Source of the DNA: Oscillospiraceae bacterium | GTDB taxonomy: Bacteria > Bacillota > Clostridia > Oscillospirales > UBA929 | DNA: 57,730 nt | Direction of reading: 5' to 3' | Assembly (NCBI GenBank): GCA_031253545.1 | Contig: JAIRWH010000074.1 | Location: 1 to 57,730, forward strand | Part shown: piece after piece, positions 30,483 to 57,599 of the stretch | How the letters are laid out: each line of letters starts with the position of its first letter | How positions within the stretch are numbered: position 1 is the first letter of the stretch | The notes under the pieces: model-generated | What the model was told of the DNA's origin: nothing | The model's input: only the letters and a program-made list of their open reading frames with translations | Database searches by the model: none | Translations under genes and position numbers: made by a program

Positions 30483-31121
30483 ATGAAACGGAAAAACACC
30501 ACCACCCAAATGATGAAAGGCTACATCGCTGAAAGCCTCTTGCTGCTGATAATCCAAAAGGCGTACAGCGATATTTCGATTGGGGAGATCGCGGGCAGGG
30601 CGGGGGTGAACCGCTCGACTTACTACCGCAATTTCGCGTTGAAGGAAGGAATCGTCGATTTCTGATTTTCCGGCGTCATGGACGAGTACATAGGCGAGTA
30701 CCGCAGGTCCGCGGACAGTTCCACGGAAAACTATTTCAGCGTGATATTCAACTGCTTCCACAAGCACAGGGAAGCTCTTTTGTCCATTCACGCGAACGGC
30801 TTGTCGCACATCATCCTCTCCGTCCTGAACCGGATGTTCGAGGAAAGCGTGGGGAGCAGTGGGTTGCAGATCGCCGAGAGGTACAGGCGGTACTTTCATA
30901 CTGGCGGCATATACAATTTCCTTTTGCTGTGGCTGTCAAACGGCATGGACGAACCGCCTGATGCATGGTACCCATCGCGATTTCCTGCTTTCACGGAAAC
31001 CCGGTGCCAAGGTTGTTGGCGTGAGTACGCGGGCGATAATCAGTCCCAGGCAAACGCCATAACAGTACGGCAGTATAAGCAAACTCCCGTCTGCCTCACG
31101 GCAAAACGGCATCCCAGATAA
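30483..31121 (+). pseudogene. TetR/AcrR-family regulator interrupted by an in-frame TGA
   Basis: The HTH is ISIGEIAGRAGVNRSTYYRNF. An in-frame TGA at 30663-30665 separates IVDF from FSGVMDEYIGEY, and both parts are in the same frame. The C-terminal tail after LWLSNGMDEPPD looks non-native, so a further shift is possible. Confidence 0.65.
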
Positions 31122-31137
31122 CCCGGACTATCACACC

Positions 31138-31166
31138 CACGGAGGGCGGTCAAAGGCCGCCCTCCG
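31138..31166. terminator. Strong 11-bp GC-rich stem-loop
   Basis: ACGGAGGGCGG (31138-31148) pairs with CCGCCCTCCGT (31156-31166) around a 7-nt loop. It lies between the convergent TetR remnant and relaxase remnant. No clear U-tract is present. Confidence 0.5.
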
Positions 31167-31172
31167 TAACCA

Positions 31173-31939
31173 TCTACAACTCGGCTTCTTGCGCTCTTTT
31201 CGCCGTCTGCTCTCGCTCCGTCGCCGCCGTCCGCTCCGCCATTTCGTCATCGGCGGCAGCCTGCTTGGGTCGAACCGCCCCTGCAAAACGTCGCGGAGGT
31301 ACCGCTCCGCGGCATCGTAAAGCGTGAGTTCGTCCTGCGGTGGCGTTTGTAGTTCTCGCTCTGGGCTATGTGCTCGTCGAGCGTTTTGAGCCTCCGTTCA
31401 ATGGGTTTCAGTTTCTCGCCGATGGAGCAAACCTCGCCGTGCATGGAGTTCACTTTCCGCTCCAAACCCGCTATGTCGGTTATGCTGTTCTCTTGGAGGA
31501 ACAGGAGCGTTTGGGACGCGGCTTTCAGTCGTGCTACGCCCGATTGGCTTTGCCTGTTCAGGATGTCGGAGATTACGTCGGCGAGGGTCGGCGGTCCTGC
31601 GTTCGCGGTTTCTGAATTCAGCCAGTCGGAGAGTTTGTTTATCCTCGCGCGCAACTGCCTGATTTGGCTGTCGGTAACGGCTGCTTGGCGGTTGGTGTCG
31701 CCAAGTTCCGTGCGTTTGCCTTTCCGCTCCATCCGCGAGGCGGCGGGTCCGAGGTGGACGGTCGGGATTTTCTACACGCCCTGCCTCGCGTAGCTGCGGT
31801 GGTCGATCGCGCCGCCGTCGGAAAGCGCCCCGCTGATGCGCAGCGCGTCGTTGCATACGTCCGCCCACGCCTTACGCCACTCCTCCGCTTTGGAGTGTTC
31901 GTTCCAGTCGGTCGTGTAAATTGCTTTCCTCCCTCCTTG
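31173..31939 (-). pseudogene. Conjugative relaxase (MobA/VirD2-type) C-terminal fragment
   Basis: The sequence is IYTTDWNEHSKAEEWRKAWADVCNDAL...IDHRSYARQGV*KIPTVHLGPAASRMERKGKRTELGDTNRQ...KLKPIERRLKTLDEHIAQSENYK. An in-frame TAG lies at 31772-31774. At least one frameshift occurs near 31330; the alternative frame gives ELTLYDAAERYLRDVLQGRFDPSRLPP. The catalytic N-terminal domain is absent. Confidence 0.7.
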
Positions 31940-32234
31940 TCAGTATATATCCTCAAGGAGCGCCTTGGTGTTCCCGTTCAGGACGGGAGGGAGGTCCGCG
32001 ATTTGCAGGCCATATCCTGTAGCACTCGTTTGCCCTTACTACCTCAAAGGTAAGATGCTGGCCGACAATCCGGTAGATGCGAACCTCTCGATTCAATGCG
32101 GAATTTGCGGACAGTATTACCGAAGGAATCCGCAAACGCGCAGAACTGAGAAAGCGAGAGCATCTCCAAGCAAATCAAAAAGTAAATAGTTTAGTGGTTT
32201 TACTGACTGAGTCGAATCGGGGTACATACCGCCG

Positions 32235-32852
32235 TTGAATGAAATACCGTACGCCGCATACGGCTCCAACATGAACACGCAGCAGATGGCGCGCCGCTGC
32301 CCCACCGCTACGCCGGCGGGGACAGCCGAGCTGCAGGGTTACCGGCTGCTGTTCCGAGGCTCACGCGAGAGTGCCGTGGCCACAGTGGAGCCATACACGG
32401 GAGGGAGAGTCCCCGTGCTGCTGTGGGAGCTTACGCCCGCCGACGAGTACTACCTTGACCGCTACGAGGGGTATCCGTATTTCTACCGCAAGGAGAGCGT
32501 CCCCCTCACCCTCGGCGGCAAGGCGGTCACCGCCATGCTGTATGTCATGAACGCCGAGGGCGGGCGCTACCCCCTCGGACAGCCGCACCCGCGCTACTAC
32601 GCGGGCTACCCAATAGCCTTGTACCCCCTGCTGCCGTGCAATATGTCCGTGGAGCGGGACAGGGACACAAAGAAAATCGTTTACACCTACCACGGCGACG
32701 AGGGGGCGGTGAAACTCGACCGCCGGCACGTCCTCCACGTTCCGGGGCTTGGCTTCGACGGGCTGGTCGGCTACTCGCCGATTGCGCTTGTCAAGGCTAT
32801 AAAAGGATATTCCCATGACAAACCGGGTCAAAAAGAAGGCACTACCCCATGA
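32235..32852 (+). CDS. Chimeric ORF: gamma-glutamylcyclotransferase (AIG2/GGCT-like) domain fused to a fragment of about 60 aa of an HK97-type phage portal protein
   Basis: The ORF uses a TTG start. The N-terminal IPYAAYGSNMNTQQMARRCP...LDRYEGYP is GGCT-like. From about residue 130, LYPLLPCNMSVERDRDTKKIVYTYHGDEGAVKLDRRHVLHVPGLGFDGLVGYSPIALVK matches the portal motif (...vlHi.g...dG..G.SPI). A non-native tail follows. Confidence 0.55.
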   Translation: MNEIPYAAYGSNMNTQQMARRCPTATPAGTAELQGYRLLFRGSRESAVATVEPYTGGRVPVLLWELTPADEYYLDRYEGYPYFYRKESVPLTLGGKAVTAMLYVMNAEGGRYPLGQPHPRYYAGYPIALYPLLPCNMSVERDRDTKKIVYTYHGDEGAVKLDRRHVLHVPGLGFDGLVGYSPIALVKAIKGYSHDKPGQKEGTTP

Positions 32853-33149
32853 CAAACGGGGGCTTCGCCCCCGTTTGTTCCCCGTGTCCCTTCCTGTCCC
32901 TTTACTTTCCCCGCCCATCGGGGGTACAATGTCCGCATACCCACGCATGCGCGCGCACACGCGCACACCCACGCGGCGGCGCGGGCCCGCGCGCGAGGCG
33001 GAGGGACAAAGCGAGACAGGGGAAAAGCGTTTGTGGAAAATGCACAAAGCCCGCCGGGAAAGTTTGTGCAAATAGCACGTGGCAAAAGCGGAAGGGCGAT
33101 GGTATGATTAAATCGTCACAGCGCAATACTTTTGACGGGAGTGGTTATC

Positions 33150-34262
33150 TTGGCAAGCCTCAATCTGAAAGGCATCTACAAAAAGTACCCCGGCGGCGTG
33201 GTGGCCGTGTCCGACTTCAACCTCGACATCGAGGACAAAGAATTCATCATCTTAGTCGGGCCGTCCGGCTGCGGCAAGTCCACTACCCTGCGCATGGTGG
33301 CGGGCTTGGAGGAGATTACCGAAGGCGAGCTGTATATAGACAACAAGCTCGTCAACGACACGCCCCCCAAAGACCGCGACATCGCCATGGTGTTCCAGAA
33401 CTACGCCCTCTACCCGCACATGACGGTGTTTGAGAACATGGCGTTCGGCTTGAAGCTCCGCAAAACCCCCAAAGACGAAATCAAGCGCCGCGTCAGCGAA
33501 GCGGCCAAGATTTTGGAAATCGAGCACCTGCTCGACCGCAAGCCCAAGGCTCTCTCCGGCGGTCAGCGCCAGCGCGTTGCGCTTGGGCGCGCCATAGTGC
33601 GTAACCCCAAGGTGTTCCTGCTCGACGAGCCGCTCTCCAACCTCGACGCCAAGCTCCGCGCCCAGATGCGCACAGAGCTTACCAAGCTGCACCAGCGCCT
33701 TGCCACCACATTCATCTACGTTACGCACGACCAAGTGGAAGCCATGACAATGGGCACGCGCATTGTGGTTATGAAAGACGGCTTTATCCAGCAAATCTCC
33801 TCGCCGCAGGTGCTGTACGAAACACCATGCAACCTCTTCGTGGCGGGCTTCATCGGCTCCCCGCAGATGAACTTCTTCGACGCGAAAGTCACCGACGAAG
33901 GCGGCGTTACCTACCTCGTGTTCGGCAACAGCAAAATCGCGCTGCCGGAGGCGAAAGGGCGCAAGCCCGAAGTGCTCGCCTACGCCGGCAAGGAAGTTGT
34001 GGTGGGCATCCGCCCCGAATGTATACACGACGAAGACATCTTCCTTTCGCAGTTCCCCAATTCGCTCGTGTATATGGACGTGGAAGTTGTGGAGATGATG
34101 GGCGCGGAGACATACCTCTACATGACTTGCGAGACCTATAACTTCACGGCTCGCGTATCCAACCGCTCCGTGGCCAAGAGCGGCGACCACATAAAGCTCG
34201 CCCTCGATGCCAAAAAGATTCACCTCTTCGACAAAGAGACGGAAAAGACCATTACCAATTAG
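33150..34262 (+). CDS. msmK: Sugar ABC transporter ATP-binding protein (MsmK/MalK/UgpC type), orphan
   Basis: Walker A is GPSGCGKST, the signature is LSGGQRQR and Walker B is VFLLDEPLSNLD. A MalK-like regulatory C-terminal domain is present. The TTG start at 33150 (MASLNLKGIYKKY) lies 9 nt after GGGAG. No permease or binding-protein genes are adjacent. Confidence 0.85.
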   Translation: MASLNLKGIYKKYPGGVVAVSDFNLDIEDKEFIILVGPSGCGKSTTLRMVAGLEEITEGELYIDNKLVNDTPPKDRDIAMVFQNYALYPHMTVFENMAFGLKLRKTPKDEIKRRVSEAAKILEIEHLLDRKPKALSGGQRQRVALGRAIVRNPKVFLLDEPLSNLDAKLRAQMRTELTKLHQRLATTFIYVTHDQVEAMTMGTRIVVMKDGFIQQISSPQVLYETPCNLFVAGFIGSPQMNFFDAKVTDEGGVTYLVFGNSKIALPEAKGRKPEVLAYAGKEVVVGIRPECIHDEDIFLSQFPNSLVYMDVEVVEMMGAETYLYMTCETYNFTARVSNRSVAKSGDHIKLALDAKKIHLFDKETEKTITN

Positions 34263-34325: not shown

Positions 34326-36569
34326 TTAACCCACCGTCACCCTGTCGAGCGCGTTCCCCTCCGAATCGGAGAGAATAAGCACACTGCCGCTTCGCACGGG
34401 GAATCCGATTTGGATTTTCAGCAGGTCGTTCTTGTCCGCGCTGCCCTTGCCCGCCAAAGTCAGCGAACCGCCCGCCGCTATCCGCGCGTCGGGCAGCCGC
34501 CACATAAAGGGGTTGGCGGCGTTGTCGCTCAGATAGTAACCCTCCGTGATAAGCAAGCCGCCCGTGGTGTTGCGGAGCACACAGCCGTTGCGCTCGCGCG
34601 AGGAATACGCGCCGTCTATCACCAGCGCGGGCGGCTCGTAATGCGACACAAGCTCAATCTTCACCTCGGACTCGTACATGCCGGTCTCAATAACGGTATT
34701 CGGCTCATACACCGTCTTACCGTTGATTTTCCAATAGTCAAACACATAATGCTCCGGCAGCGCCGGCGCGAGCGGCACATCCATGCCGTAAAAATATGTG
34801 GCGCTCTCCCCGCGCTGTGTGCCGATTACGGCCCGCCCGCCCGTCACATTGAGCGTGACCGTGGCCGAGGGGAGCTTGAAGTATTTCGCCAAGGCCTCGA
34901 ATATATATTCGCCGCGCCGTGTGGCGAAGGTTATCATGTTGCGGTGGTTGTCCGCCACGGTGTTTACGGAAACCCAACCGGAATAGCGCCGCGCCGCGAA
35001 GGCTTCGCCGATTTCGTTTTCCGCCTCGCCGTAGAGGCGGCGTATCAGCTCCGTCACCGTGTCCTTCGTCACCACGTTGGAGGCTATGTCGCACATTATG
35101 GTGATAAACTTTTCCGCCGCGCCGGGGTTCTTCAATACGGCCGCGAGCAGGCGGCTGTTTTTCGAGCCGCCGAGCACGGTCTCAAACGTGGGAATCCTGT
35201 AATTCTCGCCATACAACCCCAGCGTCCAGTCCACATCGTAGATGATATACCGCCACCGCCCGTCTAATTGCGGCGGGTCGCCCTCCGAGCGCGGCCCCGT
35301 GTAACGCCAGCGTTTCAGGTTGCCCCCCGGCCAGTCGCCGTTGCCCATGTATATGTTGAAGGCGTAGTAGAACAAAAGGTTGTCCACGTCCACGAGAGAG
35401 GCGAACTCCGCGAAGGTCTTTTCGTCGGAAAGGTCTTTTGACGCGTAAGCGTACATCGCCTTCAAGTCCGCCACAGCCTTGGTGTTGTCGCTCACATACC
35501 ATTGCTCTCCGTCGCCCACAATGTCGAAGTCGGAGGTACGCGCGCCGTATACGTCTTGCAGATATTGCTCGTTTATGTCCGTAATCAGCCACGCGAAACC
35601 GTAATAGGCGCCGTTGAGGAAGACCGCCGCCGCGCGCGAGGGCGTGACCTCGCGGAACTCGGCGCTTCGCGCAAGTTCGGAGGCCACCTCGCTGCGCAGC
35701 ATGGCAAAGTCGCGGTCGTTGCCGCCGTTGCGCAGCGTCAGCGTGTCGTACTTACGCAGGGCCTCGCCGCCGCTCGTGTAATCGTCGCCGAAAGCGTCGT
35801 AGTGAAACTTGCCGAAGCCGGGCTCATATTCGTTGCGGGCAATCAACCGCAGCGACTTTTGGTTTGCCGAGCGCGACCAGCCCCCCATAACGCGCACGCC
35901 CGCCGCCTGGGCGATAACCCGCTCGCCGCCGGGCGTATACGCCTCCACGTATACCGGGCGTTCCCCCTCGCGCCCGCGTATGTTGTAATTCGCGGGCGAA
36001 GGCGGCTGGATTATGGCGTTGGGGTTGGCCTTCCTGTATTCCGCCCGCAGCCTGCCCTCCACGAGTATGCCCGTGTCGTAGTCGTAGAGGTGCTCACTGT
36101 CGGTGGAGAGCGAAAACACCAAGGTGTCGAAGCGCGTATCCACGCCCGCGCCCATGAAGTATGTATGCACGGCGGCGCGCGTCTGCACGTCTCCGAGCAC
36201 GGCGATAGCCTTTACCACGGTAACCCTCAGCGCGGTAAAGGCGCGCAGCGCGATGGGTTCGGTATATTCATCGGAGGCACTTGTCGGCTCCGACCCGTCT
36301 GTGGTATAATAGACGGAAGCCCCGCTCGCGGAGGCCGTTATCTCCAGCGCGATGTCCTCGGAGTAGAAGCCGCCCGGCTCGGAAAACGCCACGCGCAGCC
36401 TGCCCTCCGACGCGGCCGCCAAGTCCGCGCCCAGCGCCGGCCTGTTCGCTCCGACGGGTGTTTGCGCCACTTCGCCGCCCGCGGGGTATATGGTGAGCAG
36501 CACACCCGAACCGGCCAGCAGCGCCGCGCACAGCGAAAGCACCGCCACCCTCTTGCCAAACGCGGTCAT
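34326..36569 (-). CDS. Secreted CotH-family atypical kinase with an N-terminal chitobiase-C-like domain and a C-terminal lamin-tail-like domain
   Basis: The signal peptide is MTAFGKRVAVLSLCAALLAGSG. The CotH core is QKSLRLIARNEYEPGFGKFHY...LRNGGNDRDFAMLRSEVASELAR...VFLNGAYYGFAWLITDINEQYL. The C-terminus is YYLSDNAANPFMWRLPDARIAAGGSLTL. The ATG at 36569 is preferred over the track GTG at 36578 on RBS spacing. Confidence 0.8.
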   Translation of the reverse strand: MTAFGKRVAVLSLCAALLAGSGVLLTIYPAGGEVAQTPVGANRPALGADLAAASEGRLRVAFSEPGGFYSEDIALEITASASGASVYYTTDGSEPTSASDEYTEPIALRAFTALRVTVVKAIAVLGDVQTRAAVHTYFMGAGVDTRFDTLVFSLSTDSEHLYDYDTGILVEGRLRAEYRKANPNAIIQPPSPANYNIRGREGERPVYVEAYTPGGERVIAQAAGVRVMGGWSRSANQKSLRLIARNEYEPGFGKFHYDAFGDDYTSGGEALRKYDTLTLRNGGNDRDFAMLRSEVASELARSAEFREVTPSRAAAVFLNGAYYGFAWLITDINEQYLQDVYGARTSDFDIVGDGEQWYVSDNTKAVADLKAMYAYASKDLSDEKTFAEFASLVDVDNLLFYYAFNIYMGNGDWPGGNLKRWRYTGPRSEGDPPQLDGRWRYIIYDVDWTLGLYGENYRIPTFETVLGGSKNSRLLAAVLKNPGAAEKFITIMCDIASNVVTKDTVTELIRRLYGEAENEIGEAFAARRYSGWVSVNTVADNHRNMITFATRRGEYIFEALAKYFKLPSATVTLNVTGGRAVIGTQRGESATYFYGMDVPLAPALPEHYVFDYWKINGKTVYEPNTVIETGMYESEVKIELVSHYEPPALVIDGAYSSRERNGCVLRNTTGGLLITEGYYLSDNAANPFMWRLPDARIAAGGSLTLAGKGSADKNDLLKIQIGFPVRSGSVLILSDSEGNALDRVTVG

Positions 36570-36610
36570 ATCCGCCACATCCTTTCTGTCAATCGCGGGA
36601 GGTTATCATT

Positions 36611-37261
36611 GTGCGTTACAGACACGAACTGAAATACGCCATCGGCAATCACGACGCGCACATCATCTCGCGGAGGCTGTCCGCCGTCATGCGCCCGGAC
36701 AGCCACGGCGGGGTGTACCGGGTGCACAACCTCTACTTCGACGACATGTACGGCTCGGCCTACCACGACAAAATGCGCGGTTGCCTGCGCCGCAGCAAGT
36801 GGCGCGTGCGCTACTACAACGGGGACCTCGGCTTCATACGCCTGGAGCGTAAGGCAAGGGAGGGGCAGCTGACATATAAGGAAAGCGCGCCGCTCACGCC
36901 TGAGCAGCTTTGCCGCCTGCGCCGGTGCGACTTCGGCTGCATAACGCCGCCGGTCTCGCCCCTGCTCGCTTCTTTCCTCGCCGCCCGCGCCGTCCGCCGC
37001 CTGCGCCCGGCGGCCGAGTTTTCCTATGTGCGGCAAGCGTACACCTACGCTCCTGGCGATGTGCGCGTGACGTTAGACAGCGGCGTGGGCACGGGGGTGC
37101 CGGGGCTTGCGCCGACGGGCATATTGGAGCTGAAATACGGCTCGTTTCTGCCGCGCGTCATCTCCGACATACTGGGCGGGGTGGGGCTGCGGCGCACGGA
37201 GATGTCCAAATACTGCTATGTGGCCGGATATGAAAGGAGCATGAAACCCCATGCGCGATAG
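36611..37261 (+). CDS. VTC-domain protein (polyphosphate polymerase-like, triphosphate-tunnel fold)
   Basis: The gene uses a GTG start 8 nt after GGGAGG. The sequence MRYRHELKYAI...YRVHNLYFDDMYGSAYHDKMRG...KWRVRYYNGDLGFIRLERKAREGQLTYKES matches bacterial VTC-domain proteins. Confidence 0.8.
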   Translation: MRYRHELKYAIGNHDAHIISRRLSAVMRPDSHGGVYRVHNLYFDDMYGSAYHDKMRGCLRRSKWRVRYYNGDLGFIRLERKAREGQLTYKESAPLTPEQLCRLRRCDFGCITPPVSPLLASFLAARAVRRLRPAAEFSYVRQAYTYAPGDVRVTLDSGVGTGVPGLAPTGILELKYGSFLPRVISDILGGVGLRRTEMSKYCYVAGYERSMKPHAR

Positions 37262-37910
37262 AATCTGGGAACTCATCACGGGAAGCGCGCAGTTTGCCAG
37301 CCTCGACGCGCTGAACATTATCGTGACTATGGCAATCTCGGCCGTGTGCGCCTTGGTGATTTACTTAGTATACCGTTTCTTCCATAAGGGGGCGGTATAC
37401 AGTCCGAGTTTCGCGCTGCTCATCGTCATGGTTTGCGCCGTCACGGCGTTTATCATCATCACCATAGGCGCGAACCTCGTGCTCTCGCTCGGCATGGTGG
37501 GCGCTTTGAGCATCGTGCGTTTCCGCGCCGCCGTGAAGGACCCGCTTGACGTGGGGTTTTTGTTTTGGTCCGTGGCCTCCGGGCTCACGGCGGGCGCGCA
37601 GCTGCACCTTGTGGCGCTGATGGGCACGGCGTTCATCGCCTTGCTGTATATACTCTTCACATTGACCCGCTCCGGCAGGCACACTTACCTGCTCATCGTG
37701 CGCTACGGCGCGGATGCCGAGGAACCCGTGCTGCGGTCCGTCGCCCCGTTAAGGCCCGCGCTGAAAAACAAAACGCTCACGCCCGATGCCACGGAGCTGA
37801 CCGTGGAGATAAAGACACGGCGCGGGGACGTGTCGTTTTTGGAGCAGCTGCGGCGCACGGACGGCGTGAGCGATGTCACGCTTGTGGAGTATACGGGCGA
37901 CTACACTTAG
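37251..37910 (+). CDS. DUF4956-family membrane protein
   Basis: The protein has four TM helices and the hallmark LSLGMVGALSIVRFRAAVKDPLDVGFLFWSVASGLTAGA. It overlaps the VTC gene by 11 nt. Confidence 0.8.
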   Translation: MRDRIWELITGSAQFASLDALNIIVTMAISAVCALVIYLVYRFFHKGAVYSPSFALLIVMVCAVTAFIIITIGANLVLSLGMVGALSIVRFRAAVKDPLDVGFLFWSVASGLTAGAQLHLVALMGTAFIALLYILFTLTRSGRHTYLLIVRYGADAEEPVLRSVAPLRPALKNKTLTPDATELTVEIKTRRGDVSFLEQLRRTDGVSDVTLVEYTGDYT

Positions 37911-38007
37911 CCATTATACCACGCGGCGGCGCGGGTTGTCAAAGGGGAAACACCGGGGGAGCGTTGAGCAATACGCGCCGCGTGATTATTCTGGGGGGTA
38001 ACGCCGT

Positions 38008-38964
38008 TTGGACAACAAAATGCTCACGGTATCCTCGCCGCCGCACATATACGGCCCGGACACGGTGGTGCGGCGTATGCGCGACGTGCTCGTCGCCCTC
38101 GCCCCCTCCTGCGTCCTCGGCGTGTATTACTACGGCACCCACGCCCTCTTTCTCATGCTCATCTCGGCGGGCTCCGCCGTCATATCGGAGTTCCTATACC
38201 AACGCGTGGCCGGCAAGAGGGTTACGATAGACGATTTCTCCGCCGTGGTCACCGGCGTGCTCCTCGCGCTCAACCTGCCGCCGGACGCGCCCTACTGGCT
38301 TCCCGCCGTAGGCGGCGTGTTCGCCATCGTGGCGGTTAAGCAGCTCTTCGGCGGTCTGGGGGCAAACTTCGTAAACCCCGCCTTGGCGGCGAGGGCGTTT
38401 CTTTTGGCCTCGTTCCCGGCGTTCATGACCTACTGGACCCTGCCCGACACCTCCGCCGGCGCCACATATCTGGCTCTCATCAAGTCAGACGCGGGCTTTA
38501 CGCCGCGGGCGGCCGATTACCACGCGCTTATCTTCGGCAAAATAGGCGGCTGCATAGGCGAAACCTCCGCCTTGGCCATCGTCGCCGGCGGGGCGTACCT
38601 GCTCGCCAGAAGGGTAATATCCTGGCATATACCCGCCTGCTTCGTCGGCTCGTTTGCCCTGCTGTCCTTCCTGCTCGGCAGAGACGGCCCCTTCTACACG
38701 GGCACCCCCTTCGAGCTGCTTGCCGGGGGGTTGCTGCTCGGCGCGTTCTTCATGGCCACAGACTACGCCACATCGCCCATTTCGCCCGCGGGCAAGATTA
38801 TCATGGGCGTTGGCTGCGGCCTCCTCACGGTAATCATACGTTTCCACAGCGGCTACCCGGAGGGCGTGTGCTTCGCCATTCTGATTATGAATCTCTTCGT
38901 GCCGCTGATAGATAAATACGTCCGGCCGCGCATATACGGGAAAAAGAGGGGGAAGAGAGCGTGA
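38008..38964 (+). CDS. rnfD: Rnf electron-transport complex subunit D
   Basis: The N-terminus is MLTVSSPPHI...MRDVLVALAP. The FMN-attachment region is TDYATSP and the protein is polytopic. The start could be the TTG at 38008 or the ATG at 38020. Confidence 0.9.
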   Translation: MDNKMLTVSSPPHIYGPDTVVRRMRDVLVALAPSCVLGVYYYGTHALFLMLISAGSAVISEFLYQRVAGKRVTIDDFSAVVTGVLLALNLPPDAPYWLPAVGGVFAIVAVKQLFGGLGANFVNPALAARAFLLASFPAFMTYWTLPDTSAGATYLALIKSDAGFTPRAADYHALIFGKIGGCIGETSALAIVAGGAYLLARRVISWHIPACFVGSFALLSFLLGRDGPFYTGTPFELLAGGLLLGAFFMATDYATSPISPAGKIIMGVGCGLLTVIIRFHSGYPEGVCFAILIMNLFVPLIDKYVRPRIYGKKRGKRA

Positions 38965-39530
38965 AACACACCATACGTTCCGCCCTCGCGCTCTTCATCA
39001 TCGCGGGCGCGGTCATGGCGGCGCTCGGCGTCACGCACGCGCTCACGCGGGAAGCCGCCGCCGGTCAGGAAGCGAAACAACGCGCAAAGGTCATGGGGCA
39101 AGTGCTGCCTTCCGCCTCGGAGTTCGCGGCGGTGGAGGCGGATAATTTCCCCGACTTTGTGGTGGCGGCGCACGAAGGCTTTGCCGGCGGCGTGAGCGTG
39201 GGCTTCGTTGTCGAAGTGCTGCCTCACGGCTACGGCGGGCCCATTGACATGATGGTGGGCATATCCTCCGGGGAGCCCGGCTTTATAACGGGCGTACGCA
39301 TACTCCGCCATTCCGAAACACCCGGCTTGGGCGCATTGGCCGTAAAGGAGCGTTTCCGCAGCCAGTTCGCGGGCAAGGAGCTAATCGAGCTTACCGTGGT
39401 GAAAGGCTCCCCCCGTGAAGACGAGATAGACGCCATCGCCGGCTCCACCATCACCTCCAAAGCCGTGACAAACGGTGTCAACATCGCCGTGCGCTGGTAT
39501 TCGGAGAACTCGGAGAGGATTGGGGGGTAA
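38961..39530 (+). CDS. rnfG: Rnf complex subunit G (FMN-binding)
   Basis: The protein has an N-terminal TM and the FMN_bind motif IDAIAGSTITSKAV. Its GTG start overlaps the rnfD stop. Confidence 0.85.
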   Translation: MKHTIRSALALFIIAGAVMAALGVTHALTREAAAGQEAKQRAKVMGQVLPSASEFAAVEADNFPDFVVAAHEGFAGGVSVGFVVEVLPHGYGGPIDMMVGISSGEPGFITGVRILRHSETPGLGALAVKERFRSQFAGKELIELTVVKGSPREDEIDAIAGSTITSKAVTNGVNIAVRWYSENSERIGG

Positions 39531-39584
39531 CGGTTTTGGGTGCCACAGGCAGGGTTTGCGGAGCCGTCGGGGATAATTTTCCTT

Positions 39585-39609
39585 TCCTCTCCCCCCTTTC
39601 GGGGGAGAG
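39585..39609 (+). promoter_or_regulatory. Intra-operon 10-bp GC stem-loop between rnfG and rnfE
   Basis: CCTCTCCCCC (39585-39594) pairs with GGGGGAGAGG (39600-39609) around a 5-nt loop. No U-tract follows. It lies in a 127-nt gap, unusual in an otherwise overlapping operon. Confidence 0.5.
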
Positions 39610-39657
39610 GCGCAACGTTCGCCGCGCGCCGGTATTCGGAAAGAACGGAGGGCTGAC

Positions 39658-40269
39658 ATGAAAAAGTACGCGTTACTCATAAAACGGGGCTTGTTAGACG
39701 AAAACCCCGTGTTTGTGCAGCTCATCGCCCTCTGCCCGCTGCTTGCCGTCACCACCTCCGCCGTCAACGCCGTGATGATGGGCCTGTCCACGGCGGCGGT
39801 CATGCTGTGCGCCTGCGTGGCCATCTCGCTCCTGCGCCGCCTCATACCCGCCGATGTCCGCATCGCCGCGTACGTGATTATCGTATCGGGCTTCGTCACG
39901 GTCTTGCAGCTGCTGCTGCAAGCCTACGCCCCGCCGGAGCTGTTTGAGGCGCTGGGCATCTACATACCGCTCATCGTGGTAAACTGCATACTCTTTGCCC
40001 GCATAGAGTCGTTCGCCTCGAAGAACGATGCCGTGGCCTCGTTTTTCGACGCGCTCGGCATGGGTCTCGGCTTCACCCTCGGCCTTGTGGTCATCGGCGT
40101 AATCCGCGAGTTTTTTGGCAGCGGCTCGGTGTTCGGCGTGGAGATTATCAAAGACACAAGCTCCCACCTCCTCATCATGGTCATGGCGCCCGGCGCGTTC
40201 TTCACCTTAGGTGTCATCATCATGCTCAGAAAATACTTCATGCTGAGGAAGGGGGTGCCGCACAGGTGA
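39658..40269 (+). CDS. rnfE: Rnf complex subunit E
   Basis: The sequence GLLDENPVFVQLIALCPLLAVTTS...IPLIVVNCIL is typical of RnfE/NqrD. Confidence 0.9.
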   Translation: MKKYALLIKRGLLDENPVFVQLIALCPLLAVTTSAVNAVMMGLSTAAVMLCACVAISLLRRLIPADVRIAAYVIIVSGFVTVLQLLLQAYAPPELFEALGIYIPLIVVNCILFARIESFASKNDAVASFFDALGMGLGFTLGLVVIGVIREFFGSGSVFGVEIIKDTSSHLLIMVMAPGAFFTLGVIIMLRKYFMLRKGVPHR

Positions 40270-40850
40270 ACATCATACTCATGTTCGTGAGCGCCGCCCT
40301 CATCAACAACTACGTGCTGACGCAGTTTCTCGGCATGTGCCCCTTCTTCGGTGTCACGAAGAAAGTGGACGCGGCCGCGGGCATGGGCATTTCCGTGCTC
40401 TTCGTCACCACCCTCTCGTCCGTGCTCACATTGGTTTTTTACGTCTATGTGCTTCGGCCGCTGGGTCTGGAATATTTGCAAACCCCGGCGTTCATACTCA
40501 TCATCGCCTCCATCGTGCAGTTCGTGGAGCTGTACATGAAAAAATCCCTCGGTTCGCTCTACTCCACATTGGGCATTTACCTGCCGATGATTACGGTAAA
40601 CTGCGTCATCCTCGGCGTGGCGCTCATCAATACGCGCTATGTTTCCGACGAGCACCCCTTTTTGGAGGCGCTCGCAAACAGCGTGGGAGCGGGCGCGGGT
40701 TTCCTGCTCGCGCTTGTGCTGCTCGCCGCCATACGCGAAAAATACGAAAACCACCCCGATGTGCCGTGGATATTCCAAGGCTTCCCGCTGGCACTGTTTT
40801 CGGCGGGGCTTATGAGCATAGCGTTCATGGGTTTCCAAGGGCTGATATAG
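40266..40850 (+). CDS. rnfA: Rnf complex subunit A
   Basis: The sequence NNYVLTQFLGMCPFFGV...LGIYLPMITVNCVILGVAL is typical of RnfA/NqrE. Its GTG start overlaps the rnfE stop. Confidence 0.9.
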   Translation: MNIILMFVSAALINNYVLTQFLGMCPFFGVTKKVDAAAGMGISVLFVTTLSSVLTLVFYVYVLRPLGLEYLQTPAFILIIASIVQFVELYMKKSLGSLYSTLGIYLPMITVNCVILGVALINTRYVSDEHPFLEALANSVGAGAGFLLALVLLAAIREKYENHPDVPWIFQGFPLALFSAGLMSIAFMGFQGLI

Positions 40851-40952
40851 CCCCCGCGGCAGGTTGCGGGGCTTCGCCCCCCCCGAAGGGGGAGCAAGGA
40901 GAATACCTGCGTCGGTTTCGTCGGTTTCTAAAAGTAACGGTCGGCAAAGGCG

Positions 40953-41762
40953 GTGGGTTCCATGCTTCCGGAGATACTATACCCGTTTATCAGCATCGGC
41001 GCGCTCGCGCTCTGCTTCGGCGCGCTGCTGGGCTTTTCGGCCAAGAAGTTCGCCGTGGTGCCAAACGAAAAGGCCGAGCGTATCAAGGGCATTTTGCCCG
41101 GCGCCAACTGCGCCGCCTGCGGCTACGCCGGCTGCGCCGCGTTTGCCCTTGCCGTGGCCGAAGAGCCCGGCATATACACCTACACGACCTGCCCCGTGGG
41201 CGGCCCGGACACAGCCGCCGCCATAGCGCGGGTGCTGGGGGTGGAGGCCGCCGCCGCGAACCGCTGCGCCGCCTTCATCAAGTGCAACGGCAAAGACGAA
41301 AACGTGAAGCGCAACTACATCTACGACGGCCCGAAGAGCTGCATCGCCGCCTCCCAGCTTGCCACGGGCGGCAACAAGTCCTGCGCGTACAGCTGCATAG
41401 GCCTCGCGAGCTGCAAAAACGCCTGTCCCTTCGATGCCATACGCATTGTAGACAGCATCGCCGTGGTAAACCCCAAAAAGTGCATGGCCTGCGGCAAATG
41501 CGTGGCCGTGTGCCCCAAAAAGCTCATCGAGATTGTGCCGAACAAAAACCGCGTGCGGGTGCTCTGCAATTCCGGCGACACCAGCAAATTAGTCCGCGCG
41601 AACTGCCGCGCCGGCTGCATCGGTTGCACACTCTGCCAAAAGGCGTGCGAGGCGGGGGCCATCACCGTGAAGGACAACATCGCGCATATAGACTACGAAA
41701 AATGCACCCTCTGCAATAAATGCGCGCAGAAGTGCCCCGCGAAGGCCATCATCGGCGCGTGA
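40953..41762 (+). CDS. rnfB: Rnf complex subunit B (polyferredoxin)
   Basis: The protein has an N-terminal TM and the cluster motif LPGANCAACGYAGC. Several CxxCxxCxxxCP ferredoxin motifs follow (CMACGKCVAVCP, CIGCTLCQKACE, CTLCNKCAQKCP). Confidence 0.9.
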   Translation: MGSMLPEILYPFISIGALALCFGALLGFSAKKFAVVPNEKAERIKGILPGANCAACGYAGCAAFALAVAEEPGIYTYTTCPVGGPDTAAAIARVLGVEAAAANRCAAFIKCNGKDENVKRNYIYDGPKSCIAASQLATGGNKSCAYSCIGLASCKNACPFDAIRIVDSIAVVNPKKCMACGKCVAVCPKKLIEIVPNKNRVRVLCNSGDTSKLVRANCRAGCIGCTLCQKACEAGAITVKDNIAHIDYEKCTLCNKCAQKCPAKAIIGA

Positions 41763-42226: not shown

Positions 42227-43296
42227 TTATGGCGTTATCCACATGGCGGGGCGAACGCCGGCGCTGCCGCCGCCGTAGCCGCCGCCGCCGTAGAAGAAGC
42301 CGTCGCCGCTGACGTTGCCGTCGTCGTAGACGATGGCGGCGTAGTAGCTGTCGAAGCCGGGGGACCGCAGCCACCAGTAGGAAGTATTCCCATTTGCATT
42401 GTATGCTATTCGGGCTGTAACATTGGACAGATAGAGATTCACCTCGTCTATGCTGAGCAGAAACACTTTGTCGGTCGTGTCGTTGCCACCGGGTGTGCCG
42501 TAATCTGGGTTGTCACCATTCACGACCCTTGTGTCCGCTATCCTTGACCTATCGCCCGCGTCGAAGCCGTTGTAGAAGTCGCCGTTGAGGTATTGCCTGG
42601 TCGTGCTGTTCTCCCAAGTAATCTCTCCCCCCGGTTCGTGGTAAGGCCTGTTTTCAAGAACGCCCATGCTCAGCAGGAGGACGCTGTTGCCCGCCCTGTC
42701 GAGGACTGCCCAGTTGTAGCCTCCGAACTGCATTTGTTCGTAGCCCATTTCGGACAATGCGACTGCGGTTATCGCTTCGTTGCCCTTGAACCCAAAGCCT
42801 TTGAATGTGACCGCGAGGTTTGGTGTGCCGCTAAATGCGTAGCTACCGATTGAGGTCACGCCGTCGGGCAAAGTCACACTCGTGAGTCCTTTGCAATCGA
42901 TGAACACTTCATGGCCGATTGAGGTCACGCCGTCTGGGATATACACATACGCAATCCCTGCGCCCGCGAACGCCCCATTTCCAATCGCCTTTACGGTTTC
43001 GCCCTCTATCTTCTCGGGTATCCGCACCTTGATTGTCGTTCCGATGTACTCGTTAATCACGATCCCGCCGAGCGCGGCGTCGTATCCGTACTTGAAGTCG
43101 CTCGCTTGCGTTTCAGGCAGGTCGTCCGGGGAAGGGCTTCTGCTGCGCGAAGGCGAGGGGGAAGCGTCGGAGCAAGCGGAAAACAGCAAAGCGAACACAA
43201 GCGCGAAGGCGAGGAAAGCGGCGCGGGGCTTTCTCAGCAGGCTATTTTCGCGGGCGCGGTGTGTGTGTGTGTGTGTGTGTGGCGGGTGGCTTTCAT
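42227..43296 (-). CDS. Surface lipoprotein with BspA-type leucine-rich repeats and a DUF6273-like domain. Its 5' end is out of frame at a (GT)11 tract (phase-OFF as sequenced)
   Basis: The lipobox is LLFSAC, followed by the linker SPSPSRSRSPSPDD. The LRR units are VKAIGNGAFAGAG.../VTSIGHEVFIDCKGLTSVTLPDGVTSIGSYAF. The DUF6273-like hallmarks are YNWAVLDR...VFLLSIDEV...YWWLRSPG...GVRPAMWI. The only RBS-preceded start (43296) is separated from the ORF by a frameshift inside the dinucleotide repeat. Confidence 0.75.
43259..43280. repeat. Perfect (GT)11 / (AC)11 dinucleotide microsatellite
   Basis: This is a run of 22 nt, gtgtgtgtgtgtgtgtgtgtgt. It lies between the ATG (43296) and the signal-peptide hydrophobic core of the lipoprotein gene. 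Confidence 0.95.
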
Positions 43297-46632: not shown

Positions 46633-47970
46633 CTACTGCCGGCCGGCAGAACGGCGGGTTGCCGCGAACGCCAGCAGCGCCTCTCTTTCGTTGGGTAGCT
46701 CGCCGTCCATCACCTTTTGCAGCAGTTCGGTAAGTATCTCCCCCATCCGCTTGCCGGGTTGTATGCCGATACCTTCCAAGTCGCGCCCGTTTACCGCGAG
46801 GCTTTTGAGGGAAAAACACTGCCCTTCGGCGAGCGCATTGTCAATCGCTTGCGCGAGCGCGTCAACCTGCGGCAATTCCTCGCGCGCCAAGGCCGACTGC
46901 GCCATCCTGTCCGCCCGCCGCACGGCCGTAAGCTGCCTCATGCGCCGCGCGCCGAGCTTGTTCAGCCAGCGCCTCACCGAAGCGGCATCGGCGTTGATTT
47001 TCGCGTCGTGGTGTAAAATAAGCTCGCATATCGCCTTTATCGCGGCGTTATCATATTTCAGGCCGCGCAATATATCCCTTGCCATATCCGCGCCCACCGC
47101 GCCGTGGCCGTGAAAATGACCCCTGCCGTTCTCGTCCGCCGTATAGCAGGCGGGTTTGCCTATATCGTGCAAGAGCATTGTCAGCCGCACCGTCAAGTCT
47201 TTCGGGGCGGCATCCGCGGAAACAAGCAAATGCGTGTACACGTCGTATATATGGTACGGGTTGCGCTGCTCGAAGCCGTCCGCAGGCGATAGGGGCGGTA
47301 TTATCTCAAACATAATCCGCTTATGGCGCGTGAGCAGCTCCGTCAGACCTTCTCCCATCACCAACCCGTTTAGCTCGGTCGACACGCGTTCGCGGGCGAT
47401 ATTGCCCGCCAAACCGCAGCAGCGTTCCATGGCGAGGGCGGTGTCGGGGGCTATGGCAAAACCGAGCGTGGCGGCAAAGCGCAACGCCCGCAATATGCGC
47501 AGCGAGTCTTCGCGGAACCTGCAGTCGGGGTCGCCCACACAGCGCAGCAATTTGCGCTTTATGTCGCCCGCGCCGCCGAATGGGTCTGTGAAACCGCTCG
47601 ACGGGTTGTATGCGATGGCGTTGCAAGTGAAATCGCGCCTTGCCAGGTCCTCGCGCAGGGAGCAACCAAACGCCACGGAGTCCGGCCTTCTGCCGTCGCC
47701 GTAAGCGCCGTCTATTCTGAAAGCCGTCACCTCATATGGCTGCGCGCCGAGCATAACCGTGACCGAGCCGTGCTTTGCTCCCGTGTTTATGACCTTTTCG
47801 CCCGCAAATACGGCCGCCACGCGCGAGGGCGGCGCGTTTGTGCATATATCCCAATCCTTGGGCGTTTGCCCCAGCAAACTGTCTCTGACGCAGCCGCCCA
47901 CCGCGTAAGCCTCGTGGCCGGCCGCCTCAAGGGCGGCGATTACCCTGCGGGCACCGTCGGAAATAAGCAC
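46633..47970 (-). CDS. cca: CCA-adding tRNA nucleotidyltransferase (PolyA_pol head plus HD domain)
   Basis: The head domain is AYAVGGCVRDSLLGQTPKDWDICT...TFRIDG...RRDFTCNA. The HD region is MLLHDIGKP. The gene uses a GTG start. Confidence 0.85.
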   Translation of the reverse strand: MLISDGARRVIAALEAAGHEAYAVGGCVRDSLLGQTPKDWDICTNAPPSRVAAVFAGEKVINTGAKHGSVTVMLGAQPYEVTAFRIDGAYGDGRRPDSVAFGCSLREDLARRDFTCNAIAYNPSSGFTDPFGGAGDIKRKLLRCVGDPDCRFREDSLRILRALRFAATLGFAIAPDTALAMERCCGLAGNIARERVSTELNGLVMGEGLTELLTRHKRIMFEIIPPLSPADGFEQRNPYHIYDVYTHLLVSADAAPKDLTVRLTMLLHDIGKPACYTADENGRGHFHGHGAVGADMARDILRGLKYDNAAIKAICELILHHDAKINADAASVRRWLNKLGARRMRQLTAVRRADRMAQSALAREELPQVDALAQAIDNALAEGQCFSLKSLAVNGRDLEGIGIQPGKRMGEILTELLQKVMDGELPNEREALLAFAATRRSAGRQ

Positions 47971-48001: not shown

Positions 48002-48559
48002 CTAACCATGCAACGTGAAGTCATTAAAGCGCAGCCAGAGGGAAATGTCGTTGACATACACCTCATATTCCTTGTTTAGCATGGAATGGAACCTTTCCAC
48101 CCTCAACCCCCCTTGCTCCGGCCTGTGGCCCTCGCCCTCGATGGTGACGGTGAGTTTGGAATGGAGCGGGCGCGTGGTCATTACAATCTCGCCTTGCGCG
48201 TTGGTGGTATAGACCAGCGAAGGCTCAATCAGGATGTCGGTGATAACGCCAAGTACCACGCCGGTGTTTTTGTCCACCATTTCATCGCCCGCGGCAATCT
48301 TACCCTCAAAGCGTTCGGTCATCAGTTCGTTTGTGGCGAACACCGCCGTGAAGCGCACGTCTTCCGGCGAGGGCGAGGGCTCTTCCGAAAGCGAGGGTTC
48401 CTCGGAGGGCGACCCTTCCGGCGGCGGCGGGGATTTCATCGCGTAGCGCATGACGAAGAAGCCCGCGGCCAAGACGACCAACACGATGATGACGATGTCC
48501 GCGATGTTCAGGCGCTTTTTGCGGAGCGGCGGCTGCTGCGAGGCGGGTGGTTGTTCCAT
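48002..48559 (-). CDS. DUF4330-like single-pass membrane protein
   Basis: A GGGAGG RBS is present. The sequence KKRLNIADIVIIVLVVLAAGFFV is followed by a beta-rich domain of about 120 aa. The family assignment is from memory. Confidence 0.5.
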   Translation of the reverse strand: MEQPPASQQPPLRKKRLNIADIVIIVLVVLAAGFFVMRYAMKSPPPPEGSPSEEPSLSEEPSPSPEDVRFTAVFATNELMTERFEGKIAAGDEMVDKNTGVVLGVITDILIEPSLVYTTNAQGEIVMTTRPLHSKLTVTIEGEGHRPEQGGLRVERFHSMLNKEYEVYVNDISLWLRFNDFTLHG

Positions 48560-48586: not shown

Positions 48587-49597
48587 TTACGGCGGTTGTT
48601 CGCCCGTTTCGAAGGCGGATACATTCGGCAGTATTTTCTCAAACGCGGAGCCGACCACCGCGCGCGCGCGCGCAAAGTCCGCTTCGGGCACACCGTCGTT
48701 GACGCACACCGTCAAATACTTTTGCCGCGCGATACCCCGCGCGGCGGCTTCGGCATCTTGCGGCGAGCTTATCCAGTACGCCTTGCCGCGCCTGTAACGC
48801 GCGGGGCAAAACGCGCCCTTGCAGAGCTGATTATAGCGCACGAGCCAGATGCTCACGTCGCCCTCGCCGCGAAACTTATTTTGGCAGGTTTTGCGGATAA
48901 TGTCGCCGTTTTCGCTCCAAGCCTCGGCAAACGCGCTCTTGAGGTACGGCAACGGTTGGTGGGTGTCTATGAACCCCGTGAAGTCTTGCCAGGGCAGCAG
49001 GGCGAACGTGCGGTAGAGCTGCGCGCCGTAGCGCAACCTAAACCATTTGCCCCTGTGGGCTTTGAGCGTTTCGCGCTTTGAGTGGCGGGCGTTTACGGCC
49101 CTGATGTTGTTTGCCGCAATGAACGAAAAGCCGTCTTTCGGCGCCACGGCGTTTAGTATGGCCACATCGCGCGGCAGGCCATTTACGAAGAAGTCGGAGG
49201 GCTTGGCGCGGCGAGTGAGGAACATATCGTCGTTGAAGTAGACAAACTGCTCGGCAAGGCCGGGCAGGCGGTGTAAATGCCATTCTATGGGGTGGGAACT
49301 GAATGTGGGGAGGTATTCGCCCGGCATAAAGTCCGAGTGCCGCGCTACGCGCAGGCGCGGGTGGGAAAGGTTTAGCCGGGGCGGCAAGTGCCCGTGCGTG
49401 ACCAAATACACGTTTCGCGCCCAAGGCGCGAAAGATTCTATGCCCCGGAAGAGGTAGCGCAGCAACCCCCAGTCGCGGTAACGGAGCGGCCTGTCGTCGG
49501 CGTCTGCGGCAAGGGGGGCGTACCGCGCCTTTTCGGCGAGCCACGCCTTGTCGCCGCCGTCTACCCATGTGATGACGATGTCTATATCGCCGCTCAT
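48587..49597 (-). CDS. Stealth-family (CR1-CR4) hexose-1-phosphoryltransferase-like protein
   Basis: CR1 is DIDIVITWVDGGDKAW. CR2 is LRYRDWGLLRYLFRGIESFAPWARNVYLVTHGHLPPRLN...LPTFSSHPIEWHLHRLPGLAEQFVYFNDDMFL. Confidence 0.75.
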   Translation of the reverse strand: MSGDIDIVITWVDGGDKAWLAEKARYAPLAADADDRPLRYRDWGLLRYLFRGIESFAPWARNVYLVTHGHLPPRLNLSHPRLRVARHSDFMPGEYLPTFSSHPIEWHLHRLPGLAEQFVYFNDDMFLTRRAKPSDFFVNGLPRDVAILNAVAPKDGFSFIAANNIRAVNARHSKRETLKAHRGKWFRLRYGAQLYRTFALLPWQDFTGFIDTHQPLPYLKSAFAEAWSENGDIIRKTCQNKFRGEGDVSIWLVRYNQLCKGAFCPARYRRGKAYWISSPQDAEAAARGIARQKYLTVCVNDGVPEADFARARAVVGSAFEKILPNVSAFETGEQPP

Positions 49598-57245: not shown

Positions 57246-57599
57246 ATGTTGATTGAATACATCAGCCACGGCGATTATCTCCTGCCAAATATCGTATTGG
57301 ACGAACCGCCGAGGGAATTGGCTGAACCTATCACCCGATATGGCGCGATGAGGCGGGCATATCTCCGGGAGCATCACCCAATCACATACAATCAGCTTTT
57401 GCTGACGGAGCGGCTATTCCCGCACCTGCGCGAAGTCCAATCGGACGCACATAAACGGCTTGACTGCATCATGTCTGATATACTGGTGTTTAGGCCACCG
57501 CCAGATAAAGCCGCCGACGGGCTTGCTTGGGCGGCGCACATGACAGACGTGCATCGGACAGCGGAAAAGATGATGCTTGACGAAATCGTATACGCCTAA
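57246..57599 (+). CDS. tnpV: TnpV-family transposon-associated protein
   Basis: The sequence GDYLLPNIVLDEPPRELAEPITRYGAMRRAYLREHHPITYNQLLLTERLFPHLREV...AWAAHMTDVHRTAEKMMLDEIVYA matches the TnpV pattern found on clostridial mobilisable transposons. A GAGAGGAGG RBS is present. Confidence 0.75.
   Translation: MLIEYISHGDYLLPNIVLDEPPRELAEPITRYGAMRRAYLREHHPITYNQLLLTERLFPHLREVQSDAHKRLDCIMSDILVFRPPPDKAADGLAWAAHMTDVHRTAEKMMLDEIVYA

Follow-up and report, generated by a model that had tools for sequence, protein, structure and literature searches.

What joint task could explain why genes for an exported kinase-like protein, a triphosphate-tunnel enzyme and a small membrane protein lie side by side in a gut bacterium? 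The question is raised by a trio of genes encoding a CotH-family, a VTC-domain and a DUF4956 protein at positions 34326-37910 of contig JAIRWH010000074.1, from an Oscillospiraceae bacterium (assembly GCA_031253545.1). We analysed the whole 57,730-nucleotide (nt) stretch (the window), a chromosomal segment of 57.7 kb and about 60% G+C. DNA runs matching it come from termite-gut and gut metagenomes, and the closest kin of its proteins are found in metagenome-assembled genomes (MAGs) labelled Oscillospiraceae, Defluviitaleaceae or Clostridiales. A first-pass annotation had read the trio as a conserved module in which the VTC enzyme makes a phosphate-rich compound, the membrane protein serves as a conduit and the CotH kinase uses the compound outside the cell. 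We find that the trio is a widely conserved membrane-spanning module in a termite-gut Clostridia genome and that this earlier interpretation is partly supported.

Our preferred answer, which we hold tentatively, is that the trio is a module for trans-membrane phosphate transfer, by which a polymer of the cell surface is supplied or modified. The VTC enzyme would dock on the DUF4956 membrane protein and, on the inner side of the membrane, turn nucleoside triphosphate into a phosphate polymer, which would most likely be polyphosphate. The VTC-DUF4956 pair would then hand the polymer to or across the membrane. Outside the cell, the exported, tethered CotH phosphotransferase would use this phosphate compound on, or attach it to, a surface polymer, whether glycan or protein. 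The cell surface or matrix would thereby become phosphorylated or charged. Three observations together point to one trans-membrane process: the products occupy three compartments, VTC and DUF4956 are adjacent almost without exception, and these two genes are translationally coupled. The topology proposed earlier (cytoplasmic enzyme, membrane protein, exported kinase) fits such a process, and polyphosphate export feeding the CotH kinase is plausible. What the analysis shows is the three genes and their synteny, the folds and topology, the conserved residues and the promoter-like sites; we infer the contact between VTC and DUF4956, the synthesis and export of the polymer, the donor and substrate of CotH, and the transcripts.

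The three open reading frames (ORFs) are real, intact genes. They are marked as such by their codon-position G+C, which is 0.80-0.82 at third positions against 0.43-0.49 at second positions in all three and matches that of other real genes of the window. The cotH gene (34326-36569, minus strand; supported by the ORF call, Pfam, AlphaFold and Foldseek) encodes 747 amino acids (aa) from an ATG at 36569. A GTG at 36578 would give 34326-36578 and 750 aa, but the ATG is the likelier start, with AAAGGA 11 nt upstream, in agreement with the length first annotated. On the plus strand, the VTC gene (36611-37261, 216 aa) has a GTG start with GGGAGG 8 nt upstream, and the DUF4956 gene (37251-37910) overlaps it by 11 nt. 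The divergent gap between cotH and VTC (36570-36610) is 41 bp long and contains both ribosome-binding sites. The compact divergent unit and the 11-nt overlap described earlier are both borne out by these ORF coordinates.

Conservation of the trio was assessed by two scans anchored on different genes. The VTC-anchored scan used two VTC peptide patterns from a 15-sequence alignment on one genome per species; it gave at least 580 confirmed relatives, and 80 loci were kept. Among the well-flanked loci, DUF4956 lies directly downstream of VTC in 51 of 51 and a CotH gene adjoins in 43 of 51. In the 1.19 Mb of VTC-anchored DNA, all 58 CotH matches (58/58) fall within 1.8 kb of VTC and none elsewhere. 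The reciprocal, DUF4956-anchored scan of metagenomes covered more than 570 loci; VTC is directly upstream in 50/51 and CotH is present at 20/26. CotH was called across loci by clustering and Pfam; a first jackhmmer pass from the window subfamily had found it at only 4 loci because that subfamily is too distant from the majority type. Across hundreds of genomes the linkage of the trio is far beyond chance, and the synteny confirms the view of a conserved module. The trio is not an obligate set, as about 20% of loci have the pair only. Since the pair also occurs alone and CotH accompanies it in about 80% of loci, VTC-DUF4956 forms the invariant core, which CotH joins as a frequent accessory.

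The trio is retained while gene order, strand and flanking genes vary. Three orders were found: VTC-DUF4956-cotH (the majority), cotH-VTC-DUF4956, and the divergent arrangement of the window. The majority order often stands behind a generic OmpR-type two-component system; none of the two-component systems beside it matches at PhoB/PhoR cut-offs, so that a direct tie to the Pho regulon could not be drawn. At some loci CotH is replaced by Cthe_2159, a carbohydrate-binding protein. The closest kin of the window (loci L002 and L087-L090) keep the divergent trio amid different flanks. One of them (L088, 1549-6002) has two tandem window-type cotH genes, and in another (L089, 3501-5973) cotH was called as two overlapping pieces, 555 and 322 aa long, which a frameshift or an error of assembly probably explains. 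Four loci (L049, L050, L020 and L065) place a Clostridia-type VTC-DUF4956(-cotH) operon in MAGs labelled Methanocorpusculum or Anaerolineaceae; these contigs were probably mis-binned, or else the operon moved between distant groups.

Searching PDB sequences with each of the three proteins as a single query gave nothing useful, so profile queries were needed. The VTC protein matches Pfam VTC (PF09359) at E = 7e-23 (81.8 bits against a cut-off of 23), with no other Pfam family at E <= 0.01 and no CYTH match. It has no signal sequence, in keeping with the cytoplasmic location first assigned to it. Relatives listed are all 179-282 aa long and carry PF09359 only; the window's exact VTC protein is otherwise recorded only on a 2.7-kb contig. 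Against PDB, the VTC profile finds yeast Vtc4 (3g3q, E = 1.7e-10) ahead of Vtc2 (6.8e-5) and Vtc3 (0.0085), over about two thirds of the domain. This better match to Vtc4 than to the inactive Vtc2 and Vtc3 supports polymer synthesis. Residues invariant in a 28-sequence alignment are R4, E6, K8, R61, K63, R65, R67, E79, K81, K90, Y139, R141, R152, E173, K175, S199 and K200. HMMER pairs K8 with Vtc4 K200, R65/R67 with R264/R266, Y139/R141 with Y359/R361 and R152 with R373. The tunnel residues of Vtc4 are numbered here after Hothorn et al. 2009 and structure 8i6v. The tunnel residues on which the earlier interpretation depends are kept wherever Vtc4 could be aligned, which excludes the final two strands. 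Judged by its sequence, the gene product is probably a stand-alone cytoplasmic triphosphate-tunnel enzyme of Vtc4 type.

The DUF4956 protein (Pfam DUF4956, E = 3.3e-9), with more than 7586 homologues, shows the strongest conservation in the trio: its best identity is 73%, against 55% and 60% for the other two. Its invariant motif, LSLGMVGALSIVRFRxAxKDPLD, includes R90, R92, K96 and D100. Four transmembrane segments had been annotated; the AlphaFold model (pLDDT 78.8) instead has five membrane-region helices (20-44, 52-72, 75-94, 98-115 and 119-139) and a C-terminal ACT-like domain (144-213) with the order beta-alpha-beta-beta-alpha-beta. Foldseek matched the C-terminal domain alone, to ACT/ferredoxin-like folds, with the C-terminal domains of MgtC from Mycobacterium tuberculosis (2lqj) and Pseudomonas aeruginosa (7qa5) at ranks 2 and 4 (TM-score 0.56-0.59). 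Relatives give weak Pfam MgtC (PF02308) matches (E = 0.0017 and 0.065; 19.1 and 14 bits against a cut-off of 31.4). The window protein itself has no MgtC match at E <= 10, and a search of PDB sequences with the DUF4956 profile gave no match of any kind. The predicted architecture, five helices and an ACT-like domain, is MgtC-like. With the C-terminal domain cytoplasmic, the Arg/Arg/Lys/Asp motif would lie at the inner membrane face.

The CotH protein matches Pfam CotH (PF08757) at E = 9.7e-27 over residues 228-559 (94.7 bits against a cut-off of 23.8; full length, 1-322 of 322). Its AlphaFold model, built from 44 relatives (pLDDT 90, pTM 0.83), runs from a hydrophobic helix (residues 3-27) through a disordered linker and a small beta domain to a large alpha/beta domain and two beta-sandwiches. 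The helix (36489-36569, minus, in the 747-aa form) was located by AlphaFold secondary structure, pLDDT and sequence. The chitobiase-C-like N-terminal domain annotated earlier is corroborated by Pfam CHB_HEX_C_1 (2e-15, residues 68-125 in 750-aa numbering; 36204-36377, minus), where Fn3_assoc also matches (2.9e-11). The lamin-tail-like C-terminus (34332-34577, minus) had also been annotated. The last sandwich of the model resembles lamin Ig/tail domains in Foldseek (3gef, E = 8.9e-4, TM-score 0.60; 3jt0; 1ifr; TM-scores 0.57-0.63), and two CotH relatives bear PF00932; the Pfam LTD match of the window protein (0.0089) is under the cut-off. A second beta-sandwich lies ahead of it at about 570-645.

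The kinase fold and its active site are well preserved. The top Foldseek match of the model is Bacillus cereus CotH (5jd9, E = 5.7e-12, TM-score 0.74 on the target), followed by other atypical kinases, and the CotH family profile matches 5jd9 at E = 8.5e-29. Within the kinase domain (34902-35897, minus; from Pfam and the 5jd9 profile match), in 750-aa numbering, the catalytic Asp D415 (35334-35336, minus) aligns with the 'NFD' Asp of 5jd9, N420 five residues on (35319-35321, minus) with its Asn, and the metal-binding D448 (35235-35237, minus) with the 'WDYD' Asp. In a 44-sequence alignment of the window subfamily, D412 and N417 (747-aa numbering) never vary, and D445 almost never does. D415 and D448 are the counterparts of B. 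subtilis D228 and D251, and the D228Q and D251A forms of that enzyme are inactive (PMC7821199). The catalytic Asp, Asn and Asp on which a kinase role depends are all kept. The window protein is only 16-22% identical to the CotH types beside most other VTC-DUF4956 pairs; by sequence comparison it belongs to a newly recognised, divergent 750-aa subfamily of 681 clusters. The hydrophobic N-terminal helix and disordered linker suggest that CotH is exported or membrane-tethered, the helix acting as a signal peptide or signal anchor. Other CotH types have transmembrane anchors at both ends (majority type) or a lipoprotein-like signal (Pel type), so export signals are present in all three subtypes.

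The gene set itself is not new. Whitfield et al. 2020 described a conserved group of accessory genes beside pelDEADAFG in streptococci, clostridia and bifidobacteria, made up of DUF4956, DUF4832, cotH and a 'polyphosphate polymerase' gene (PMC7112168). Streptococcus intermedius SIR_1594-1592 is the trio at a Pel locus (PMC12345266), and Lepp et al. 2010 reported VTC genes, each followed by a gene for a cytoplasmic-membrane protein of about 225 aa, beside a CotH gene in Clostridium perfringens NELoc-2 (PMC2879425). The 2025 study of S. intermedius noted the MgtC/ACT likeness of DUF4956 and stated that the trio is absent outside Pel loci (PMC12345266). The window, like most of the loci collected by our scans, contradicts that claim. 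Of its 45 gene calls, 43 were scanned with Pfam (two below 100 aa were left out), and no PelF, PelG, PelA-like or DUF4832 protein was found; nor do pel genes flank the six closest divergent-type loci or the co-directional relative L003. What is new is the Pel-free standing of the trio, the divergent cotH and the new CotH subfamily, together with the MgtC-like build of DUF4956 and the two conserved promoter-like sites described below. Our literature searches found no paper assigning a biochemical function to the trio, as the first-pass annotation had supposed; that annotation needs correcting in that the set was already described (PMC7112168) and partly tested by genetics (PMC12345266).

These associations bear on the target of the module. 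The carbohydrate-associated domains of CotH, the Cthe_2159 alternative and the Pel association together point to a surface glycan. A Stealth-family protein with CR1, CR2 and CR4 regions is encoded 11 kb from the trio (48587-49597, minus); Stealth proteins are sugar-1-phosphate transferases of phosphoglycan capsules, and this one could be another source of phosphate-containing surface polymer. Genes for a DUF4330 protein (48002-48559) and a CCA-adding enzyme (46633-47970) come after it. As at Gram-positive Pel loci, the trio might be an exopolysaccharide accessory module, adjusting how a secreted polysaccharide is made, modified or retained, with the synthase genes at some other place in this genome. 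We consider this decidedly unlikely as the explanation, even though much of the evidence just given is in its favour: the Pel-linked trios of streptococci, clostridia and bifidobacteria and of locus L005 (where the trio stands with pelA-like, pelF and pelG genes and DUF4832), NELoc-2 beside a glycosyltransferase, the S. intermedius phenotypes described below, the CotH domains, Cthe_2159 as a partner and the nearby Stealth transferase. The 57.7-kb window and the flanks of the six closest divergent-type loci and of L003 lack pel genes, and most of the 80 genome loci have a two-component system, not a polysaccharide synthase. An exopolysaccharide role also speaks to the target more than to the mechanism, and is compatible with phosphate transfer across the membrane.

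Several findings weigh against trans-membrane phosphate transfer, and those on the VTC protein concern its chemistry. The last two tunnel strands (E173/K175 and S199/K200, candidate counterparts of Vtc4 E426 and S457/K458) were not aligned by HMMER, even with a profile of the C-terminal third. Bacterial VTC proteins keep, in their R-x-E-x-K motif, one Glu of the ancestral ExExK that is absent from Vtc4; the window protein is a single domain of 216 aa without SPX or transmembrane (DUF202) domains. The retained Glu and the missing domains make other triphosphate-tunnel chemistry possible. Literature searches gave no experiment showing polyphosphate synthesis by any bacterial VTC protein. The enzyme could instead be a tunnel hydrolase or cyclase acting on tripolyphosphate, a nucleoside triphosphate or thiamine triphosphate, with a small-molecule product or substrate that DUF4956 senses through its ACT-like domain. 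Small ligands are what ACT domains typically bind. Such a role would also fit the Vtc4 match at only E = 1.7e-10 over two thirds of the domain. We regard it as quite improbable, because VTC is the sole Pfam family at E <= 0.01, with no CYTH match, the basic residues lining the Vtc4 tunnel are invariant, and active Vtc4 is matched better than the inactive Vtc2 and Vtc3.

The remaining contrary points concern the membrane step and the order of action. DUF4956 has no Foldseek likeness to the yeast VTC channel and resembles MgtC, whose known actions, as PMC12345266 summarises them, are regulatory; the channel-like conduit of the first-pass annotation loses ground here. The pair lacks an adjoining CotH in the minority of loci already mentioned, some of them amid housekeeping genes. 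In S. intermedius, deletion of DUF4956 raises Pel and lowers aggregation, deletion of cotH lowers both, and deletion of VTC has no measurable effect and leaves aggregation unchanged (PMC12345266). The silent VTC deletion and the opposite effects of the other two on Pel argue against a linear path from VTC through a conduit to the kinase, as the earlier scheme had it. The same DUF4956 and CotH deletions, in altering Pel level and aggregation, also count in favour of trans-membrane phosphate transfer.

Much of this evidence would also suit a regulatory or homeostatic MgtC-like pair that exports nothing. VTC would make or hydrolyse a cytoplasmic phosphate compound, DUF4956 would behave in the manner of MgtC as a membrane anchor or regulator, sensing a ligand through its ACT-like domain and controlling another membrane machine, and CotH would be merely co-regulated, with another phosphate donor or as an adhesin. 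The MgtC-like architecture, the known regulatory actions of MgtC, the pairs without CotH among housekeeping genes, the deletion phenotypes and the two-component systems adjoining the majority-type operon all lean this way. Co-regulation alone can hardly produce a CotH adjacency of about 80% over three gene orders, the products are strictly divided between cytoplasm, membrane and outside, and an exported kinase fold still requires a phosphate donor. We think a purely regulatory pair somewhat doubtful.

A more specific form of phosphate transfer, which we rate as rather unlikely, takes VTC and DUF4956 as a two-piece polyphosphate synthase-translocase independent of PPK1/PPK2. It would present polymer on the outer face for CotH-fold enzymes in place of ATP, and CotH would phosphorylate surface glycans or proteins or attach polyphosphate to them. 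If this is true, the MgtC-type membrane domain would conduct or gate phosphate polymers, and the long-puzzling links of MgtC to phosphate and ATP homeostasis would gain a biochemical basis.

How the divergent genes are expressed is a separate question. The 41-bp gap is filled by the two ribosome-binding sites, so the promoters must be elsewhere. Our scan found a promoter-like site, TTGTCG-18-TGgTATAAT (36281-36310, plus), inside cotH about 300 nt upstream of VTC; it is a candidate promoter of VTC-DUF4956. The site is antisense to the codons for YYTT...EPTS of cotH and occurs in five of the six divergent-type loci with the same synonymous codons (TAT TAT ACC ACA ... GAG CCG ACA). At the sixth (L090) neither the scan nor a search for the YYT motif found it. 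It is missing in the co-directional relative L003, and of the two cotH copies of L088 only the VTC-adjacent one keeps it, the distal paralogue having a degraded form. A perfect sigma-70-type site, TTGACA-18-TGnTATAAT (12/12; 37913-37942, minus), was found by the same scan 3 nt past the DUF4956 stop. It reads antisense through DUF4956-VTC toward cotH, with no other minus-strand gene found in between, and is a candidate distal cotH promoter. Past DUF4956, four of six divergent-type loci have a site scoring at least 10/12, and all six (6/6) have a perfect -10 hexamer within 25 nt. Only 2 of 77 control loci reach a score of 10/12 or more, even though their regions are richer in A+T.

A precedent exists in B. 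subtilis: there cotH is transcribed with a long leader from a promoter past the 3' end of cotG, its divergent neighbour (PMC7821199, citing Giglio 2011). With the two conserved sites, this suggests two fully overlapping divergent transcripts of about 1.65 kb. Because the overlap of the transcription units would be complete, cotH and VTC-DUF4956 are probably coupled through antisense transcription in this lineage. Rfam has no family in or around the trio, including the 300-nt VTC leader, so no known riboswitch is present there. The shared layout also recalls a spore-coat function, in which CotH would phosphorylate coat proteins during sporulation and VTC-DUF4956 would serve the spore. Coat-protein phosphorylation is the sole characterised CotH function (PMC7821199), and Coat_F, SpoIIGA and sigma-E genes occur near the trio in relatives. 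We find this very improbable all the same: the helix or signal of CotH argues for a site outside the cytoplasm, the promoter-like sites match the sigma-A consensus and not sigma-K, no substrate gene with Ser/Lys/Arg repeats adjoins, and the trio is also found in non-sporulating streptococci and bifidobacteria (PMC7112168).

Searches of other model collections and the rest of the window gave the following. No NCBIfam model matches the CotH, VTC or DUF4956 protein. PADLOC models have no match to any of the three at E <= 0.01, and an anti-phage defence role was rejected on that ground. An rnf operon (38008-41762) begins 97 nt past DUF4956 and opens with rnfD, then rnfG, E, A and B; rnfC, which usually heads such operons, was not found upstream of rnfD or elsewhere in the window. 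Convergent with cotH is a gene for an MsmK/MalK-type ABC ATPase with OB and TOBE domains (33132-34262, plus), with no permease or binding-protein gene alongside. The stretch 30678-33100 has many overlapping ORFs and few family matches, among them an ORF (32235-32852) that fuses a GGACT (gamma-glutamyl cyclotransferase-like) N-terminus to a phage portal protein fragment; the stretch resembles the remnant of a decayed prophage or mobile element. G+C falls to 0.52 at 24-26 kb of the window. Two DUF6273 proteins are probably surface proteins: one of 2162 aa (16644-23132, minus) with DUF6273 as its sole Pfam match, and one with BspA-type leucine-rich repeats (42227-43198, minus). At the window edge a TnpV transposon-protein gene (57246-57599, plus) lies beside a hybrid histidine kinase and a response regulator, and a mobile element may start near it.

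The trio matters for several reasons. Gut and rumen Firmicutes, some pathogens and fungi commonly carry exported CotH-type kinases, and the module bears on how such a kinase acts outside a bacterial cell, where ATP is scarce. To our knowledge, polyphosphate in bacteria is thought to be made by PPK enzymes only. A VTC-type polymerase with its own membrane partner would, if true, change that picture and make the VTC-DUF4956 pair a handle on the function of MgtC-like membrane domains. As the invariant core, VTC-DUF4956 is the pair to reconstitute first. The module is not tied to Pel, and culturable, Pel-free carriers include Ruminiclostridium papyrosolvens C7 (L061) and Anaerovorax odorimutans (L060).

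Among known systems, the Pel accessory set has the same three Pfam families as the window, contiguous and with an exported CotH. The Pel set adjoins pelDEADAFG and has DUF4832 or a DGC/PDE gene with it. The window differs in having no pel or DUF4832 genes, a cotH divergent from VTC-DUF4956, and a CotH with CHB_HEX_C_1 and lamin-tail-like domains. In NELoc-2, unlike the window, two copies of the pair flank a resolvase, the annotation of the membrane protein is 'tubulin/FtsZ', and the genes adjoin a chitin-synthase-like glycosyltransferase on a pathogenicity locus (PMC2879425).

The window VTC protein resembles yeast Vtc4 (3g3q, 7ytj, 8i6v) in its tunnel domain, its aligned Lys, Arg and Tyr residues and its obligatory membrane partner. 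In contrast to the yeast VTC complex, it is a separate soluble protein of 216 aa, a putative polymerase that keeps one Glu of ExExK; DUF4956 is unrelated to the DUF202 helices of the yeast complex, with no Foldseek match. DUF4956 is closer to MgtC of Salmonella, M. tuberculosis and P. aeruginosa, with five predicted transmembrane helices and a cytoplasmic ACT-like C-terminal domain. It departs from MgtC in having no Pfam MgtC match above the cut-off, in its own LSLGMVGALSIVRFRxAxKDPLD motif and in always accompanying a VTC enzyme.

The window CotH shares with Bacillus CotH (5jd9/5jda) the kinase fold (TM-score 0.74) and the catalytic and metal-binding Asp residues, but the two are only about 13% identical, and the window protein is twice as long, with an export signal and three extra beta domains. 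As in B. subtilis cotG-cotH, the apparent cotH promoter lies past the 3' end of the divergent neighbour. Here that neighbour is VTC-DUF4956 and not the substrate gene cotG, and the promoter-like sites are of sigma-A type; the common layout suggests a conserved coupling of cotH to its divergent neighbour.

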